Origin: an uncultured Alphaproteobacteria bacterium
GTDB taxonomy: Bacteria; Pseudomonadota; Alphaproteobacteria; Rhodobacterales; Rhodobacteraceae
Length of the DNA: 64,000 nucleotides
Direction of reading: 5' to 3'
Assembly (NCBI GenBank): GCA_902614945.1
Contig: CACMNE010000007.1
Coordinates: forward strand, 1,235-65,234
The notes beneath the pieces are model-generated. The model searched no databases and had not been told where the DNA came from. It saw only the letters and a program-made list of their open reading frames with translations. Below, piece after piece: positions 5,945-13,073 of the stretch. Numbering within the stretch: position 1 is the first letter of the stretch; each line of letters begins with the position of its first letter. A program made the translations under genes and the position numbers.

Positions 5945-6820
5945 TTGAGTGCAAGTTTAAGAATTAGAAACTTTAATTATCTCAAAAGCATTTTTTTAAT
6001 GCTTTTGACAGGTTTATGCTTTGTTGCAGTAATGGTCAGTGTGAAATATTTAAGTAAAGATCTGCCTTCTATACAGGCAGCTTTTTTTAGATATTTATTT
6101 GGTTTGATTCTGATTTTACCTCTTTTTAAATTTCAGTACAAAAAAAATATAAATAAATTGCCTATATTCAAATATGGCTTAAGAGGAATAATCCATGGAT
6201 TTGCTGTAGTTCTATGGTTTTATTCTGTTGTTAACATTCCCATGGCAGATGTAACCGCAATAAACTATTTAACACCAATTTTTACAACTATTGGTGCAAT
6301 ATTAATTTTCAAAGAAGTTATTACTCTTAATAGAGTAGTTGCTCTTCTATTATCATTTATAGGTGCTATGTTAATTTTAAAGCCAGGCTTTGAAATTTTT
6401 TCTTATGGTAAAATTGCTCAACTATTTAGTACTATATTATTTGCTACTTCATATTTAATAGCGAAAAACCTAACTAAAACAGAAAGTACAAATTTAATTG
6501 TAATTTTCCTTACTTTTTTTGCTACAATTACCCTATTACCTTTTACTTTTTTTCTGTGGGTTAACCCTTCAATAGGTGATTTATTATTATTATTTGGTGT
6601 GGCAATTTTAGGAACACTTGGTCATTATTTTATGACTATGGCCTTATCATTAGCACCACTATCTGTTACTCAGCCAGTTATTTTTTTTCAGCTGATCTGG
6701 TCAACTTTAATTGGATTATTACTATTTGGTGAGTCGCTAGATATTTTTATATTAATTGGTGGTTCATTTATAGTGGTAGCTATAGTTCAATTATCATCTA
6801 ATGAAAAATTAAAAAAATAA
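5945..6820 (+). CDS. EamA/DMT-family transporter
   Basis: 291 aa with about 10 TM helices arranged as two EamA-like halves. TTG start as given by the ORF track; the exact start is uncertain. Confidence 0.72.
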   Translation: MSASLRIRNFNYLKSIFLMLLTGLCFVAVMVSVKYLSKDLPSIQAAFFRYLFGLILILPLFKFQYKKNINKLPIFKYGLRGIIHGFAVVLWFYSVVNIPMADVTAINYLTPIFTTIGAILIFKEVITLNRVVALLLSFIGAMLILKPGFEIFSYGKIAQLFSTILFATSYLIAKNLTKTESTNLIVIFLTFFATITLLPFTFFLWVNPSIGDLLLLFGVAILGTLGHYFMTMALSLAPLSVTQPVIFFQLIWSTLIGLLLFGESLDIFILIGGSFIVVAIVQLSSNEKLKK

Positions 6821-6854
6821 AAAACCCCCTAAAATAAATATTCTAGAGGGTTTT
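6821..6854. terminator. Candidate bidirectional intrinsic terminator between the convergent EamA gene and fccB
   Basis: AAAACCC(C)CT-loop-AG(A)GGGTTTT. The core is 7 bp plus 2 bp with one mismatch, with A/T runs on both sides so each strand reads stem plus T-tract. Confidence 0.45.
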
Positions 6855-6874: not shown

Positions 6875-8137
6875 TTAGCCAAACATGTCAGATGTTATAC
6901 CAGCGTACCATCCAAGACTTTCTTCATAAGTAGCTTTTCTAACAGCAGCATCTTCCCCAGTTTTGGAAACAAACCCAGAAACTTTAGCAATTTTCTCATC
7001 TGTAGCTTCATAACTTGCTCCAACTTTAATACCATCATTAGTATCAACAAGGGACCAACAAGTATTTGAGAATTTAGCTGGAAATACTTTTGAATCTGTA
7101 AGTTCGCCTCTGACTGCCATTGCGCATACCTTGGCTTGAGAATTAGCAGAAAACCCTGATTTTGGCATATCACCTTGTGCAGCTGCATCTCCCAGGATAT
7201 GAATATCACTATTTTTTCTACTTTGCATTGTATGTGCAATTGTTGGTGCCCAATTACCGTCTGTAACTCCTGCTAATTCAGCAATCTTACCGGCTTTCAT
7301 AGCTGGTATTACGTTACATACGTCAACTTTTTCAGCTTCACCATCAACAATTACTTCCATACTGGCAGGCCTTACTTCAACCCCTTTACCACCCATTTCT
7401 GGTCCTATCATTTCAATCATACCAGAATAGTGCTTATTCCAACCTTCTTCGAATAAGCCCTGTTTAGAAAATTTTGGTTTTGGTTCGAGGATTAAAATTT
7501 TTGCACTTGGGTTTATCTTCTTAAGTTTATGAGCCACCATGGAAACTCTTTCATAAGGTCCTGGAGGACACCTATAAGGATTAGGTGGTGCTACCATGCA
7601 ATAAGTCCCTCCTTGTCTCATATTCTCAATTTGGGCATTAAGAAGTTGAGTCTGAGATCCAGCTTTATAAGAATGAGGCATTTTATTTTGAGATGATAAA
7701 TCCCAACCTGGCACAGAATTGTCAACGAAATCAATTCCTGGAGAAAGAATTAGCTTATCATAATTCAAAGTTCCTCCACCAGCTAATGATACGGTCTTAC
7801 CACTTGAATCAACATCAACTGCCCAATCATGAACAACATTAATACCAAAATCACTGGCTAACTTTCCGTAACTATGGCCAATAGAATCAAAATCTCTAAA
7901 GCCACCTAGATATAAGTTTGAGAAAAAACAAGTATAATAGCTTCTCGTTGGTTCCACTAATGTAACATCAATAGCACCTTTTGAATCTTTGGCGATATAT
8001 CTTGCTGCTGTCGCTCCTCCTGCGCCACCACCTATCACCACAACTTTTGGTCTTGATGCTCCAAAAACCATTGGTGAAGACATTGTAGCGGCTATACCTG
8101 CCGAAGCAGAAATAAAATTTCTTCGATTTAGTTTCAT
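6875..8137 (-). CDS. fccB: Flavocytochrome c sulfide dehydrogenase, FAD-binding subunit
   Basis: Twin-arginine signal (MKLNRRNFISASAGIAA...), FAD fold VVVIGGGAGGATAARY, and FccB/SoxF-type blocks YYTCFFSN, RCPPGPYERVS, MPKSGFSANSQAKV and a C-terminal ...SDMFG. Confidence 0.9.
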   Translation of the reverse strand: MKLNRRNFISASAGIAATMSSPMVFGASRPKVVVIGGGAGGATAARYIAKDSKGAIDVTLVEPTRSYYTCFFSNLYLGGFRDFDSIGHSYGKLASDFGINVVHDWAVDVDSSGKTVSLAGGGTLNYDKLILSPGIDFVDNSVPGWDLSSQNKMPHSYKAGSQTQLLNAQIENMRQGGTYCMVAPPNPYRCPPGPYERVSMVAHKLKKINPSAKILILEPKPKFSKQGLFEEGWNKHYSGMIEMIGPEMGGKGVEVRPASMEVIVDGEAEKVDVCNVIPAMKAGKIAELAGVTDGNWAPTIAHTMQSRKNSDIHILGDAAAQGDMPKSGFSANSQAKVCAMAVRGELTDSKVFPAKFSNTCWSLVDTNDGIKVGASYEATDEKIAKVSGFVSKTGEDAAVRKATYEESLGWYAGITSDMFG

Positions 8138-8156
8138 ATTTGATCCTCCTTATAAA

Positions 8157-8525
8157 TTAATTATTTATCGATTCAAAAAAAATTGCAAGAGAAGCAATTT
8201 CTTCATTTGATAATCTTTGCGTAATCATTTCCATTATTGGATGGTTGCGTGCTCCACTCTTATATGAATGAAGGGCCCACACAAATGATTCTATAGGCCA
8301 TCCTGTAATTGAAGGAATACCTTCATCTAAACCTTGTGCATGATGGCATGTAGTGCATTCACTTGACAGATACTCTCCATAATCTATGTCACCAACAATG
8401 GCTAAAATTTCGTCAGAAACTTCAAATCCATCTTCATCATTGACTTGTTCGCTTGCCAATACATAAAAACCACAAAGATTTAAACATAGAGTTGAAATAG
8501 ATAATACTGATATTAAGCTTTTCAT
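8157..8525 (-). CDS. fccA: Monohaem c-type cytochrome, probable FccB partner subunit
   Basis: 122 aa with a Sec-type signal peptide and a single CxxCH site (CTTCHH). The gene sits 19 nt upstream of fccB on the same strand. The monohaem form resembles the small subunit of some flavocytochromes c or SoxE. Confidence 0.7.
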   Translation of the reverse strand: MKSLISVLSISTLCLNLCGFYVLASEQVNDEDGFEVSDEILAIVGDIDYGEYLSSECTTCHHAQGLDEGIPSITGWPIESFVWALHSYKSGARNHPIMEMITQRLSNEEIASLAIFFESINN

Positions 8526-8563
8526 AACCTAATTATACATATGAAATATGCTCCTGCAAGATA

Positions 8564-9463
8564 TTAACTTATTTGAATGCTCACACTTTTAATATAAAAA
8601 GACTTAATCTGGTTAGATATTAATTCTGGATTTTCTTCATGCATAAGATGTCCATGTTCAGGATTAGATATAAATTCTGCTTTTGGAATATCCTTTGATG
8701 CTTTAAGATTATCATGATTTTCAACAATATTATCATTTTGCCCAACTATTAAACAAACTGGAATTTCAATTTGTTTCAATCTCAATATGAGTTGGTTTAA
8801 ATTCCATTGCGACATCATCGCTAATGTTCCTTCAACATGTTTTTTGTCTGAAATTAATTTTTTATAATAAATTATACCTTTAGGATTAATCTTACTTCCT
8901 GTTAAACTGAGAAATTTTTCAACTTGATTTTTTGAAGAGTATAAAGAGGTAAAAAAAGGAACCGTTAGAGGACTCATTGATAAAAATTTAGCTAACAAAG
9001 GATATAATATTCCTGCAATGCCTGAAAAATTACCTAATGCTCCATTTAAACATAATATACCTTGTATTTTAATTTTTTTTGAAAGTGCTAAATTTAAAGC
9101 AACTGCTGCTCCTGCAGAATGACCTATAACTAAATTAGGATTTACATTCATTTTAATTAAAAGAAATTCTAAATCTTTAGTTATAGCCTCTAGGCTGGAT
9201 CGATTTTTTTTTCCTAATCTTGAAAAACCATGCCCTGGCAAGTCTACAAGAATTACTCTAAAATTATCTTTTAATTGATCTAAAATTAATCGCCAACTAT
9301 GTGTTGATGCACCAGCCCCGTGAATAAATAGAGCTATGGGCAAATTTTTTTTCTTGGTTTTAAGTTTGTTAGTATCTTGTACGTGCCAAGTATGAGTTTC
9401 GGAATCAATAAAATTACTTAATTCATGATGTGGCCAATCAAATTTTTCTTTATCCCATTGCAT
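8564..9463 (-). CDS. bchO: Alpha/beta-hydrolase BchO (Mg-chelatase-associated)
   Basis: 299 aa with the oxyanion region FIHGAGAS and the nucleophile elbow GHSAGAA. It sits immediately after bchD (the ATG overlaps the bchD stop by 1 nt), as in the Rhodobacter bchI-bchD-bchO arrangement. Confidence 0.85.
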   Translation of the reverse strand: MQWDKEKFDWPHHELSNFIDSETHTWHVQDTNKLKTKKKNLPIALFIHGAGASTHSWRLILDQLKDNFRVILVDLPGHGFSRLGKKNRSSLEAITKDLEFLLIKMNVNPNLVIGHSAGAAVALNLALSKKIKIQGILCLNGALGNFSGIAGILYPLLAKFLSMSPLTVPFFTSLYSSKNQVEKFLSLTGSKINPKGIIYYKKLISDKKHVEGTLAMMSQWNLNQLILRLKQIEIPVCLIVGQNDNIVENHDNLKASKDIPKAEFISNPEHGHLMHEENPELISNQIKSFYIKSVSIQIS

Positions 9464-11106
9464 TAGTTTAATTTATTTAAAATCATATTTGATAATTGGT
9501 GAGCATTGGCTCTGGGTAGAAGCACATATTCCCCACCTAAATTTTTAGCTAAATCTTTTGCATTTTGAGAAATCCTTTGAGAAGTATCAATCACCATTGT
9601 TTTTAATTTATTTGATACAAATAGTTTTGAAACTTGAGAACTATCTTCTAAAGCCTTAATTCTTCCTTTTTCTCCATCTAAATCTATATTAGCTTTTCCA
9701 TCTGTTAAAATAATACTCACGGGTGAAAAACCTTTTTGAGAATAATCGATAGATAATTTTAGCGCTGACATTAATCCCGAAGCTAAAGGTGTTCCACCTC
9801 CACCAGGTAAAGAACCTAAAACACGTTTAGTTTTACTCAATGATCTAGTTGGAGTTAATAAAGTTTCAGCATTATCTCCTCTAAAAGATATAAGCGCTAC
9901 TAAATCCCTTGAAGAGTAAGCATTAGCAAGAAGTAATTCTATAGCACCTTTTGCTTCCGCTAATCTTCCTACTGCTAAAGATCCAGAGGCATCAACAGTA
10001 AAAATGATGACCCTATTTTTTGAATCCTTAAATTTTTTTATTTGTATATCAGATGTTCTGAATTCAATTTTAAACTTATCACTATTTGATAATGTTTTTT
10101 TTCTAATCAATTGCCAAGGTGCTGCGGATTTCAATGTACCTATAACGTCTATTTTATTTCTTCCATTAGGAATACCATTGTTAGAAGGAAGTGGGCGTCC
10201 ACGCTGAAAAGAAATTTTATTTTGCCCGCTACCTGACTTATTAACCAAGGATTTATTGTTACTTTTTCCATGGATTATTTTTTCTAAAATATTTGATGGT
10301 AAATTAACTTTCACTGCATCTAACAGTAATTCAAGAGGAATATCAGTGGATTTTTTTTTATTTTCTTCTCTATTATCGTTAGTTTCATTTTTCTTTTGGT
10401 TTTGTTCTTGATTATCTTCAATAGGGGGAGGAAAATTTTTTATTTTATGTGCTAAGGTTAGTCCAATACTCTCAATTAGGTCTTTTTCTTCAACAACTTT
10501 TACTCCTCTTAGTGCTGATAAAGCACTAGCAACTTTTACAGCGAATAATACAGGTCTTATACTATTTATTCCAGTTGTGGATGTAATTTTAAATAAATCG
10601 CTATAAAAATTTTCAGGCATTTCAATTTGGTTTAAAAGAGATTTCGCATTGGAAATATCATATTTTTTTATTTTGAAATTTTTAATTTTTTTAAAAGGTA
10701 TTGAATTTAAATCAATAAAAAAAGAAATTCTTTCTTTGAGACAATCAGGTATTTCTTCTTCTTCTATACCTTCATCTACTACTAATAATAAAAAATTTGG
10801 TTTTATATCCATTTTTTGGGCAAAGATAGCAGCCACTCTTGGTTCAAACCTTTCCCCCATCATCAGTTTTAAAATTTTTGGATTATCGTCAAAAAGACTT
10901 TTTCTATAAACTGGTTTTCCTAAATTAAGGGTCTCTGAAAAATCTAGCCCTCCGTGTAATTTTGAATCTGAGATTTCTGGAAATATTTTTTTTACAGGAA
11001 ATTCATTTAAATTTTTTTCTATAAGACTTAGTGCTAAACTTCTAGTTTCACTATGTCGTGATTTTATTATTAATCCCCCTATATCAAAAGGGAGTAATCG
11101 TAACAC
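9463..11106 (-). CDS. bchD: Mg-protoporphyrin IX chelatase subunit D
   Basis: Degenerate N-terminal AAA+-like region, an acidic/Asn-rich linker (PPPIEDNQEQNQKKNETNDNREEN) and a C-terminal vWA domain with MIDAS DASGS. GTG start, and the frame is open for a few more codons upstream. Confidence 0.92.
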   Translation of the reverse strand: MLRLLPFDIGGLIIKSRHSETRSLALSLIEKNLNEFPVKKIFPEISDSKLHGGLDFSETLNLGKPVYRKSLFDDNPKILKLMMGERFEPRVAAIFAQKMDIKPNFLLLVVDEGIEEEEIPDCLKERISFFIDLNSIPFKKIKNFKIKKYDISNAKSLLNQIEMPENFYSDLFKITSTTGINSIRPVLFAVKVASALSALRGVKVVEEKDLIESIGLTLAHKIKNFPPPIEDNQEQNQKKNETNDNREENKKKSTDIPLELLLDAVKVNLPSNILEKIIHGKSNNKSLVNKSGSGQNKISFQRGRPLPSNNGIPNGRNKIDVIGTLKSAAPWQLIRKKTLSNSDKFKIEFRTSDIQIKKFKDSKNRVIIFTVDASGSLAVGRLAEAKGAIELLLANAYSSRDLVALISFRGDNAETLLTPTRSLSKTKRVLGSLPGGGGTPLASGLMSALKLSIDYSQKGFSPVSIILTDGKANIDLDGEKGRIKALEDSSQVSKLFVSNKLKTMVIDTSQRISQNAKDLAKNLGGEYVLLPRANAHQLSNMILNKLN

Positions 11107-11214: not shown

Positions 11215-12225
11215 TCATTTTCCTATGGTTTCTTCAATTGCTCTTTCAACTCTAACATTTGATCCTACATCATCGAGAGGGTCTTTGCGAAGTCTGTGTC
11301 CCAAACAAATTGAAGCAACTTTTCTTAGATGTGAAATTTCAACAGTATCTTTATTTTCAAATGATGCTTGTGCTTTTGATGTTCTTATTAAGGTCAATTC
11401 TCCTCTTAAGCCATCTGAACCTAAAGCAAGACATAATTTTGCACAGCTTTCTAGTACTTCATTTGATACTTTAACATCAATTAGTTTTTTTCGAGCTCTA
11501 ATGATTTTTCTCCTTAATTTTGAGTCCTCTTTTTCCCAAAAAAGGAAAAATTCTTTATCTTTATCATCAAATTTGGTCCTTCTTTTTATTACTTCCATTC
11601 TTTCTTTTAATTCTCTGGGAGATTTTACTTCAACTGATAGCCCAAATCGATCAAGAAGTTGAGGTCTTAATTCTCCTTCTTCTGGGTTCCCTGAACCAAC
11701 AAGTACAAATTTAGAATCGTGTTTTACGGATAATCCTTCTCTTTCAATAAGGTTTTCTCCTGAAGCAGAAACATCTAGTAATAGATCCACAATATGATCT
11801 TCTAATAAATTGACCTCATCGATATATAGATATCCTCTATTAGCGTAAGCTAGAAGTCCTGGCTCAAAGCTTTTTTTGCCCTGGCTCAATGCTACTTCTA
11901 AATTTAAAGATCCAACTACTCTATCTTCTGTTGATCCAAGTGGTAAATCTATAATCGGTGTTGGTTTTTGTTCTACTTTTTTAACAGAAGTTGTAGAACA
12001 ATGAGAACAATTTTTATTAAGGTTTTCACAATTGTAGGGGCAGCCTTTAATTGACTTTATTTTAGGCAACAAAGCCGTTAGAGATCGAACTATTGTTGAT
12101 TTTCCTGTACCTCTTTCACCAAAAACCAATACTCCGCCTATCAATGGATCGATAGCGGTAAGAATGAGAGCTTGCTTCATGGTTTTCTGCCCAACAATAG
12201 CAGAGAATGGATAATCCAACTTCAT
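11215..12225 (-). CDS. bchI: Mg-protoporphyrin IX chelatase subunit I (AAA+ ATPase)
   Basis: Walker A GERGTGKST and Walker B YLYIDEVNLLEDH, with length and sequence typical of BchI/ChlI. Confidence 0.96.
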   Translation of the reverse strand: MKLDYPFSAIVGQKTMKQALILTAIDPLIGGVLVFGERGTGKSTIVRSLTALLPKIKSIKGCPYNCENLNKNCSHCSTTSVKKVEQKPTPIIDLPLGSTEDRVVGSLNLEVALSQGKKSFEPGLLAYANRGYLYIDEVNLLEDHIVDLLLDVSASGENLIEREGLSVKHDSKFVLVGSGNPEEGELRPQLLDRFGLSVEVKSPRELKERMEVIKRRTKFDDKDKEFFLFWEKEDSKLRRKIIRARKKLIDVKVSNEVLESCAKLCLALGSDGLRGELTLIRTSKAQASFENKDTVEISHLRKVASICLGHRLRKDPLDDVGSNVRVERAIEETIGK

Positions 12226-12242: not shown

Positions 12243-13040
12243 TTAAATAACAGATTTACCACACCATTTTCCAATTGCTTTTTCTACTTTAAATCTTGCA
12301 TATAATTCCTCAGAGAACCAGTTACCTTCTCGAACTGATTTGATTGCTTTTGCGTGGGGACCGTCTTTTCTTGCGAAATTAGACATTGATTCTGCATTTG
12401 GCCAAATAGAAAAGGTTACTTGATGAAACCATGGAATTTCTCCTAATCCCATTTTAAAAAGCACATTGTTATCATTACCTATAACTTTTGAAATTGCGGG
12501 TACTCTAGACCAAAACTTGAGCATTATTTTTGGTTTTATAGTAGCTCTAGTTAATGCAGCCAACATTTTCTCTTCTGAGATTGTTTCTTTTTTTAATGGG
12601 TCGAATGGATTAATTTTATCCCAATATCCTTTGCTTGAAATTGGAGAAAGAAAAACATTCCAATTCTCAACTGATTTTGCTCTATATTTTTTATATATTT
12701 CTTTTTCTCTTATATTCTTTTCAGCAATGTTAATATCATTCCAAACGCTCAAGATAGCATAAACACTTGTATTAGGATAAGGCGTAAATCCCTCGCCAGT
12801 TCCTGAACCAAATAATTTATAAAAAGATATTTCTTTTATATTTTTCAACTTTTTACGCGCAAAACCCATTTGACCAAATGCCCATAATTTTTGGAAGATT
12901 CCTTTGAATCTAAAAAAACTTATAACTACAATTTGTGTATCTGTTTGCAAAGTTTTTTGACCAATTTCAAATTTTTTGTTTTCCATACTTTCAAGTACAA
13001 AGAAGCATTCATTTAATATGTTGTCAAATTTTTCTGACAT
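12243..13040 (-). CDS. crtA: Spheroidene monooxygenase
   Basis: 265 aa at the canonical position: upstream of bchI on the same strand and divergent from crtI. The family call rests on overall resemblance to CrtA plus synteny. Confidence 0.82.
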   Translation of the reverse strand: MSEKFDNILNECFFVLESMENKKFEIGQKTLQTDTQIVVISFFRFKGIFQKLWAFGQMGFARKKLKNIKEISFYKLFGSGTGEGFTPYPNTSVYAILSVWNDINIAEKNIREKEIYKKYRAKSVENWNVFLSPISSKGYWDKINPFDPLKKETISEEKMLAALTRATIKPKIMLKFWSRVPAISKVIGNDNNVLFKMGLGEIPWFHQVTFSIWPNAESMSNFARKDGPHAKAIKSVREGNWFSEELYARFKVEKAIGKWCGKSVI

Positions 13041-13073
13041 GATAAGTTTATAATATGTTAAAAAGATCTGACA
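13022..13073. promoter_or_regulatory. Two PpsR/CrtJ-type palindromes (TGT-N12-ACA) covering the crtA and crtI start codons
   Basis: TGTCAAATTTTTCTGACA (13022..13039) overlaps the crtA ATG. TGTTAAAAAGATCTGACA (13056..13073) overlaps the crtI ATG. The two start codons are 14 nt apart. Confidence 0.6.

Follow-up and report, generated by a model that had tools for sequence, protein, structure and literature searches.

Does a pair of genes for flavocytochrome c sulfide dehydrogenase (FCSD) that lies directly behind the photosynthesis genes crtA-bchI-bchD-bchO depend on them for its expression, or does it carry its own promoter? The question is raised by a 64,000-nt stretch of DNA (the window) from contig CACMNE010000007.1 of an uncultured member of the Rhodobacteraceae (assembly GCA_902614945.1; 1.6 Mb, 68% complete; window contig GC 32%). 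An initial annotation had suggested that the pair may lie under the PpsR-controlled crtA promoter, as the last genes of one transcription unit. The genus was sampled by 15 species genomes, comprising single-cell genomes and metagenome-assembled genomes (MAGs) labelled Alphaproteobacteria, Rhodobacteraceae or Paracoccaceae; genomes are denoted by G-numbers (G000 is the window assembly) and loci or contigs by L-numbers. The pair represents soxE and soxF of the Sox system, and we consider it fairly probable that soxEF is a relocated Sox module with its own predicted σ70-type promoter, not dependent on crtA-bchIDO. An own promoter is favored because the element in the spacer before soxE is conserved, because deep species of the genus have equivalents of it, and because soxEF was kept after decay of the photosynthesis cluster.

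The gene soxE (fccA-type; 8157..8525, minus strand) encodes a monohaem cytochrome c of 122 aa, recognized by its CTTCH motif and by matches to c4/c552 cytochromes and the FccA chain 5N1T_B. It is located directly 5' of soxF (fccB; 6875..8137, minus strand), which encodes the 420-aa flavoprotein of FCSD, recognized by its Pfam FCSD domains, and the two genes are separated by 19 nt (8138-8156). The 38-nt spacer between bchO and soxE (8526..8563, minus strand) has no hairpin and holds the predicted σ70-type promoter. In Rhodobacteraceae outside the genus, a scan of species genomes found the order soxC-soxD-soxE-soxF in about 55 of 74 loci, and in a family sample the same pair stands behind soxC-soxD in 20+ loci. 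Because the same genes follow soxC-soxD in other members of the family, the window pair was assigned as SoxE/SoxF, which makes up the periplasmic flavocytochrome c belonging to the Sox system; all six earlier gene calls (crtA, bchI, bchD, bchO, fccA, fccB) are borne out by matches to NCBIfam and Pfam models or to proteins of solved structure. In Sulfitobacter, soxEF have been named as encoding the flavocytochrome c (FCC), and soxF is sometimes located apart from the cluster (PMC11034169).

The bchO-soxE spacer was aligned for seven genus genomes of the window subclade, and the addition of metagenome variants gave nine haplotypes. In the seven-genome alignment, 26 of the 38 positions do not vary, and these fall into two blocks: from the 5' end, an invariant ATCTTGCAG is followed by seven positions that all vary, and the 3' part consists of an invariant TTTC-n-TATGTATAATT, three variable positions, and then TT and the ATG. 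In the flanking genes, 76 of 285 four-fold sites (27%) are invariant and synonymous divergence reaches 0.75-1.1. The predicted -35 hexamer TTGCAG (8554..8559, minus strand) and the predicted -10 hexamer TATAAT (8532..8537, minus strand) are each unchanged in 9/9 haplotypes, as are the 16-nt spacing between them and the 6-nt distance to the start codon (TTGCAG-N16-TATAAT-N6-ATG); one of these haplotypes belongs to a divergent lineage in which the sequence between the hexamers is mostly different. This strict architecture occurs eight times in 3.2 Mb (both strands of the assembly). In deeper species the region upstream of soxE cannot be aligned and shows the same geometry in a different sequence: TTGATA-N17-TATTAT-N5-ATG in G064, where it is the top promoter-like match of the scan in that region (a G064-like contig has TATCAT as its -10), TTGAGG-N16-TATAAT-N7-ATG in G067 and G070, and TTGATG-N17-TATAAC-N8-ATG in G063-type sequences. 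The -10 thus ends 5-8 nt before the ATG, which predicts a leaderless or nearly leaderless soxE mRNA; the transcript would begin with the A of the ATG or a neighboring base and would thus possibly be leaderless. Every soxE in this comparison begins with ATG, and the genus alignment shows no conserved Shine-Dalgarno site before it, in contrast to soxF, whose Shine-Dalgarno site AAGGAGGA (8144..8151, minus strand) is conserved in nine of ten aligned genus genomes. For alphaproteobacteria, mRNAs that lack a leader and begin with AUG have been documented; an operon of this type in Rhodobacter sphaeroides is cited in PMC3616915.

Several observations weigh against a promoter in the spacer as the source of soxEF transcripts. 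The hexamer TTGCAG matches only three of six consensus positions, and for this reason the window site was not listed by a standard promoter scan. The -10 of the G063-type sequences is poor, as its final, usually invariant T is absent, and TATAAT-like strings are common in an AT-rich genome such as this. The conserved TTTCCTATG upstream of the -10 is left unexplained by a plain σ70 promoter, and may be bound by a regulator or have another role. A Shine-Dalgarno-like motif was found at only ~27% of crude gene starts in the genome; since such motifs are sparse genome-wide, the lack of one before soxE says little in favor of a leaderless mRNA. Finally, nothing after bchO would stop RNA polymerase from entering soxE: the junction folds no better than shuffled sequence (z +0.59), in agreement with the earlier observation that the 38-nt spacer contains no GC stem, and holds no terminator. 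Two other readings of the spacer were rejected. An RpoH-type site (CTTG ... CCTATGT) has its blocks 13 nt apart, and the alphaproteobacterial heat-shock consensus needs 17-18 nt between them; an extended -10 (TGnTATAAT) does not apply, as the TG directly abuts TATAAT.

Two congeners, G067 (97% complete) and G070, lack pufM, crtA, bchI, bchD and a full bchO; both bchCXYZ-puf-puhA and crtB/I/A-bchID are gone. Their decayed loci (L071, G067:C13, 6700-9200; L072, G070:C20, 9600-12700) contain in order dxs, a crtF fragment, an intact crtE, pieces of crtD, a fragment of crtC and the final ~75 bchO codons. Behind this bchO remnant, soxE-soxF is intact, with 89% identity and a dN/dS of ~0.03. As crtA-bchI-bchD has been lost there, soxEF of G067 and G070 cannot use the crtA promoter. 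G067 retains RuBisCO, SoxB and soxEF, and may represent a lineage that lost phototrophy.

The position of soxEF behind bchO is a property of the genus. It was found in 9/9 bchO-bearing genus genomes, in each of which soxE is directly 3' of bchO (one contig ends inside soxE), and in 11/11 metagenome contigs that reach far enough. None of the 74 soxF loci from outside the genus carries bchO, none of the bchO loci of 29 other Rhodobacteraceae genera carries soxF, and 16 genera that possess both carry them on separate contigs or 728 kb apart. The adjacency whose recurrence the initial annotation had proposed to survey is therefore constant within the genus and absent from the 29 other genera (0/29). 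In canonical loci 0-6 nt separate the soxD stop codon from the start of soxE; the sox cluster of the genus consists of soxVWXYZABCD followed by dmdA and rimO, lacks soxEF, and leaves the pair separate from soxCD. The far flank of the window pair (eamA and genes for an enoyl-CoA hydratase, a DksA-like protein, an MFS protein, a CoA-transferase and TrkH) is equally conserved in the genus. In a tree of 118 SoxF sequences all those of the genus fall into a single clade (SH-aLRT 100) that lies within sequences from a soxCD context, which indicates that soxEF was relocated once, inside the family. An acquisition from outside the family is not supported, as the genus clade nests within Rhodobacteraceae SoxF. 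The bchO-soxEF arrangement is thus a conserved, old, single-origin neighborhood of the genus, and not a proven shared operon. Compared with the sox cluster of Paracoccus and roseobacters (soxRSVWXYZABCDEF...), the window pair has the same cytochrome-then-flavoprotein order and the same twin-arginine translocation (Tat) signal, whereas it is detached from soxD and placed behind bchO, and its soxE is preceded by a promoter-like element rather than being translationally coupled to soxD.

The scenario that we favor would begin in the ancestor of the genus, where soxEF would have moved from its usual site after soxD to the margin of the photosynthesis cluster, with bchO on one side and housekeeping genes on the other. 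It would now be transcribed from TTGCAG-N16-TATAAT in the 38-nt spacer as an mRNA that is leaderless or nearly so, soxF would be translated from its strong Shine-Dalgarno site, and the transcript would end at a hairpin shared with the convergent gene eamA. This hairpin (6821..6854; -21.6 kcal/mol, z -3.59 against shuffled sequence), flanked by T/A runs between soxF and eamA, is an intrinsic terminator shared by the two genes. A terminator scan of the minus strand from crtA to the soxF stop codon found 6854-6821 as the sole terminator-like site, which upholds the earlier statement that the first such hairpin appears only after fccB. We think it somewhat probable that the predicted promoter is the main driver of soxEF. 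Read-through from bchO into soxE is possible: with no terminator behind bchO, transcripts from crtA-bchIDO may run on and contribute a part of soxEF expression.

A larger role for such read-through defines the most serious alternative, a dual control of the superoperon type in which a basal or sulfur-responsive soxE promoter is combined with meaningful, regulated read-through from crtA-bchIDO. The lack of a terminator behind bchO would permit it, the adjacency has been kept across a long divergence (BchO has only 64% identity between deep species), and the genus combines a reaction center, RuBisCO and Sox, so that sulfur-derived electrons could matter in light. Overlapping transcripts are established in the photosynthesis clusters of Rhodobacter, and those of purple-bacterial clusters elsewhere provide a precedent. 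On the other hand, retention of the neighborhood may reflect the inertia of a streamlined genome with few rearrangements, the whole trkH...ech-eamA flank is just as conserved, and in most lineages soxE on a read-through mRNA would be without a ribosome-binding site. We regard dual control as unlikely, while giving it more weight than the other alternatives.

The conserved blocks of the spacer might also serve a purpose other than transcription initiation: they could be a translation-initiation device, mark a site where RNA is processed or bind a regulator. In the translation-initiation variant, GGAG and an upstream ATG would give rise to a mini-ORF (MYN*) or a five-codon extension coupled to soxE. 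Consistent with this, the ATG lies within a conserved block and is in frame with soxE in five of nine haplotypes, a GGAG is present 10 nt 5' of it in five of seven genome sequences, and the extra conserved TTTCCTATG is unnecessary for a σ70 promoter. The remaining four haplotypes, however, close this frame at once, by TGA in G074 and by TAA in L190, and G000, L187 and L188 close it with TAG; the supposed Shine-Dalgarno site is the variable part of the region (GGAG, GGTA, TAAGG, GAAAG); and the deep species share the geometry of -35, -10 and ATG, not the sequence. A non-promoter function of the blocks is therefore improbable to a high degree. The upstream ATG itself (ATGTATAAT...) was also rejected as the real start of soxE, since an in-frame stop codon stands right behind it in 4/9 haplotypes.

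About as improbable is the single operon of the initial annotation, in which soxE and soxF would be the last cistrons of crtA-bchI-bchD-bchO-soxE-soxF, transcribed only from the PpsR-controlled crtA promoter so that sulfide oxidation is switched on with pigment synthesis: the common strand, the 38- and 19-nt spacers, the lack of a bchO-soxE hairpin, two PpsR-type palindromes at the crtA/crtI start and an adjacency kept in every genus genome that bears a photosynthesis cluster speak for it, whereas a promoter-like element is conserved in the spacer, two genomes in which crtA-bchID is deleted, G067 and G070, retain an intact soxEF under strongly purifying selection, the arrangement occurs in 0/29 other Rhodobacteraceae genera, and soxE has no conserved Shine-Dalgarno site for internal translation. 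The PpsR sites themselves point the same way. Two palindromes of the PpsR/CrtJ type (TGT-N12-ACA) were located by pattern search in the divergent crtA/crtI start region (13022-13039 and 13056-13073), which is presumed to be the regulated promoter of crtA-bchIDO. Such pairs occur at crtA/crtI, crtD/crtE and bchC; over the window as a whole the motif shows no enrichment (19 observed, 15.1 expected). The same search found no paired palindromes near soxE and one single site (8446-8463) inside the coding region, which was rejected as a regulator of soxEF, being single, coding and not conserved in G073-type genomes. The case for control by the crtA promoter is thus weakened on four counts: the invariant promoter-like element of the spacer, the two congeners that keep soxEF without crtA-bchI-bchD and most of bchO, the lack of paired PpsR palindromes near soxE, and the restriction of the adjacency to the genus. 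The soxEF pair shares with the crtA-bchIDO unit its strand, short spacers and the lack of a terminator before soxE, and is set apart by the predicted promoter before soxE. A further two TGT-N12-ACA motifs, 5 bp apart, were noted in the 5' coding sequence of bchI (11969-12009), and could be a chance occurrence or an internal PpsR-type site.

The 122-aa SoxE of the window has a hydrophobic N-terminal signal, a single haem motif (C57TTCH61), and Met98/Met100; no Pfam or NCBIfam model hit the ORF, and its matches are c4/c552 cytochromes and the monohaem FccA chain 5N1T_B (102 aa). In deep species of the genus and in other genera, SoxE is a dihaem protein of 230 aa (dihaem in G063, G064, G067 and G070; 9225-9917 in L071), the N-terminal half of which is a cytochrome c2-like domain (1CO6, 3e-21), and the C-terminal half of which is FccA-like. 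The dihaem two-domain architecture is absent from the window protein, which is 122 aa long and has a single haem. According to the alignment, an in-frame deletion of ~108 residues in the window subclade takes out exactly the c2-like domain and spares the signal peptide along with the FccA-like half, while the c2-like domain is kept in G064, G067, G070 and the outgroups. Alignment with these relatives indicates that the window SoxE is monohaem by secondary loss, through one clean deletion, and not by ancestry. It differs in this from the FccA of Allochromatium vinosum and the SoxE of roseobacters and Paracoccus, which are dihaem two-domain proteins. The FccA chain of Thioalkalivibrio paradoxus (5N1T_B, 102 aa) is likewise monohaem, whereas the window SoxE became so secondarily. 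Relative to the Paracoccus/roseobacter cluster, the deep genus species retain the 230-aa dihaem SoxE, and the window subclade lacks its N-terminal c2-like domain. The gene is under purifying selection (dN/dS 0.06-0.11), with 89 of 122 residues invariant versus 7 of 32 four-fold sites. The possibility that the 122-aa cytochrome is a decaying remnant was ruled out by this dN/dS and by the kept signal peptide and haem motif.

SoxF has the sequence features of an FCSD flavoprotein. Matches to PF07992 (Pyr_redox_2, 1.9e-10), PF21706 (FCSD_central, 3.7e-44) and PF09242 (FCSD-flav_bind, 1.2e-21) are all above the cut-offs, and the protein aligns end-to-end with the solved enzymes of T. paradoxus (5N1T_A, 1e-100), A. 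vinosum (1FCD_A, 7e-89) and Thermochromatium tepidum (3VRD_B), with E-values from 1e-100 to 3e-84. Cys70 (SYYTCFFSN) aligns with Cys42 of 1FCD_A, the cysteine that carries the covalent 8-alpha-S-cysteinyl flavin adenine dinucleotide (FAD), and Cys190 (YRCPPGPYER) and Cys360 (SNTCWS) align with the 1FCD redox pair Cys161/Cys337. These three cysteines are common to SoxF and the FCSD of all three organisms; the window proteins are only moderately identical to those enzymes. By inspection, the N-terminus MKLNRRNFISASAGIAATMSSPMVFGA contains a twin-arginine signal (R5R6). SoxF is under purifying selection (dN/dS 0.01-0.03) and has 72-79% identity to Rhodobacteraceae SoxF proteins encoded behind soxCD. 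Judged from these comparisons, the two proteins are ordinary members of the known FCSD family. A promoter-like TTGCAA-N17-AATAAT was flagged by the scan at the end of soxE, just before soxF (8160-8188 in the window, minus strand; 8307-8335 in L073 from G064); its conservation is uninformative because it lies within conserved coding sequence.

From these features we infer an electron path. SoxF would be exported by the Tat system and would oxidize sulfide at its FAD/disulfide site, passing electrons to the haem of SoxE. Since the built-in output domain of SoxE has been lost and the haem on the flavoprotein side has been kept, the electrons would then have to go to a separate cytochrome, that is, from SoxE to a soluble c-type cytochrome and on to the reaction center or a terminal oxidase. 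A combination of dual control with a monohaem SoxE that feeds the cytochrome reducing the reaction center, by which sulfide oxidation would be wired into light-driven electron flow, is improbable; if true, it would contribute to photolithoautotrophy in oxic surface waters of the ocean.

The metabolic setting gives the question its interest. The RuBisCO large subunit was found in the window assembly and in 10/14 congeners, pufM in 10/15 genus genomes and SoxB in 11/15. The sox core was not found in the G000 assembly, where the orthologs of the flanking genes rimO and dmdA are also missing. A real loss of the sox core in G000 was rejected as unproven, and the absence was read as incompleteness because the assembly is 68% complete, rimO and dmdA are missing with it, and the nearest relatives (99% SoxF) have SoxB. 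With RuBisCO in the window assembly and a full Sox cluster in congeners, the genus is not simply like the aerobic anoxygenic phototrophs (AAP), which corrects the earlier description of the organism as otherwise AAP-like. The clade is unusual in combining bacteriochlorophyll photosynthesis, RuBisCO and sulfur oxidation, and the expression of sulfide dehydrogenase bears on whether reduced sulfur gives electrons in light. A combination of phototrophy, the CBB (Calvin-Benson-Bassham) cycle and Sox has been described for 'Candidatus Luxescamonaceae' (Graham et al., 2018; PMC6018677), and such a clade reportedly makes up an abundant part of the pelagic roseobacters (bioRxiv 10.1101/2025.07.01.662563). 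These accounts of 'Ca. Luxescamonaceae' and the LUX cluster depict low-GC, streamlined organisms with phototrophy genes, RuBisCO and Sox, as in the genus studied here, and the genus fits that picture by description rather than by phylogeny. The link between sulfur oxidation and phototrophy is therefore not new in the group, since 'Ca. Luxescamonaceae' has already been described so (PMC6018677). The portions of these two sources covered by our literature search contain no mention of sulfide dehydrogenase, soxF or its position. What sets the locus apart is its gene order, the predicted leaderless promoter and the lost domain of SoxE. The outcome is mostly sobering: soxEF looks like a two-gene module that was moved and is self-sufficient, and not like an addition to a photosynthesis operon. 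It offers testable items in the predicted leaderless promoter, in the relatives that have soxEF, RuBisCO and Sox without photosynthesis, and in the dihaem-to-monohaem deletion of SoxE.

Together with soxE and soxF, the genes crtA, bchI, bchD and bchO are arranged head-to-tail on the minus strand in the ORF list, the coordinates of which confirm the strand and the 38-nt and 19-nt spacers reported earlier. The spheroidene monooxygenase gene crtA (12243..13040, minus strand) matched NF045923 with 335 bits, above the cut-off of 300, and bchI, for the Mg-chelatase ATPase subunit I (11215..12225, minus strand; TIGR02030, 487 bits), starts 17 nt after it. The gene bchD, for Mg-chelatase subunit D (9463..11106, minus strand), matched NF009943 (517 bits) and TIGR02031 (393 bits) over the full length, but under the curated cut-offs. 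It is followed by the alpha/beta hydrolase gene bchO (8564..9463, minus strand; TIGR03056, 292 bits), whose ATG overlaps the bchD stop codon (TAATG), so that the two genes are coupled. This order, the strand and the bchD-bchO coupling are the same as in the Rhodobacter-type photosynthesis gene cluster, whose order is also followed by other ORFs of the window; crtI, crtB and the crtA-bchO block were scanned with profiles, and the other ORFs were named by position and size. In the clusters of this type from the 29 other Rhodobacteraceae genera, nothing resembling soxEF follows bchO, unlike in the window genus. On the far side of soxF, eamA, for an EamA-family transporter (5945..6820, plus strand), is the first housekeeping neighbor in the flank conserved genus-wide.

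Several observations were made on related loci. A c-type cytochrome beside bchO is not unique to the genus, because in five of the 29 other genera (L160, L170, L174, L181, L184) a cytochrome c2-like gene is convergent to bchO, though its orientation and family are different. The gene directly behind the genus sox cluster encodes a dmdA-type dimethylsulfoniopropionate (DMSP) demethylase, accompanied by rimO (L075, 7921-9033, from G065; L076; L077). Stand-alone soxEF pairs are located behind carB, with a terminator, in other Paracoccaceae MAGs (L084-L086, L199-L204), and have a conserved intergenic region of ~100 nt that contains TTGATT-N17-TACAAT. Some of these MAGs (L084-86) are the nearest to the window in identity; a common origin with their stand-alone soxEF was rejected, as they are placed elsewhere in the tree, and the carB-linked pairs are an independent detachment from the sox cluster. 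Two MAG contigs assigned to Flavobacteriaceae and Gammaproteobacteria (L105, L124) carry a Rhodobacteraceae-type soxF with 74-75% identity, nested in the family tree, and probably represent binning contamination. In the metagenome contig L192, a bchO 3' end identical to that of the window is joined to a G073-type soxE, which makes this contig either a recombinant or a chimera of the assembly. L188 (GOS) has a disrupted soxE frame, possibly through a sequencing error.

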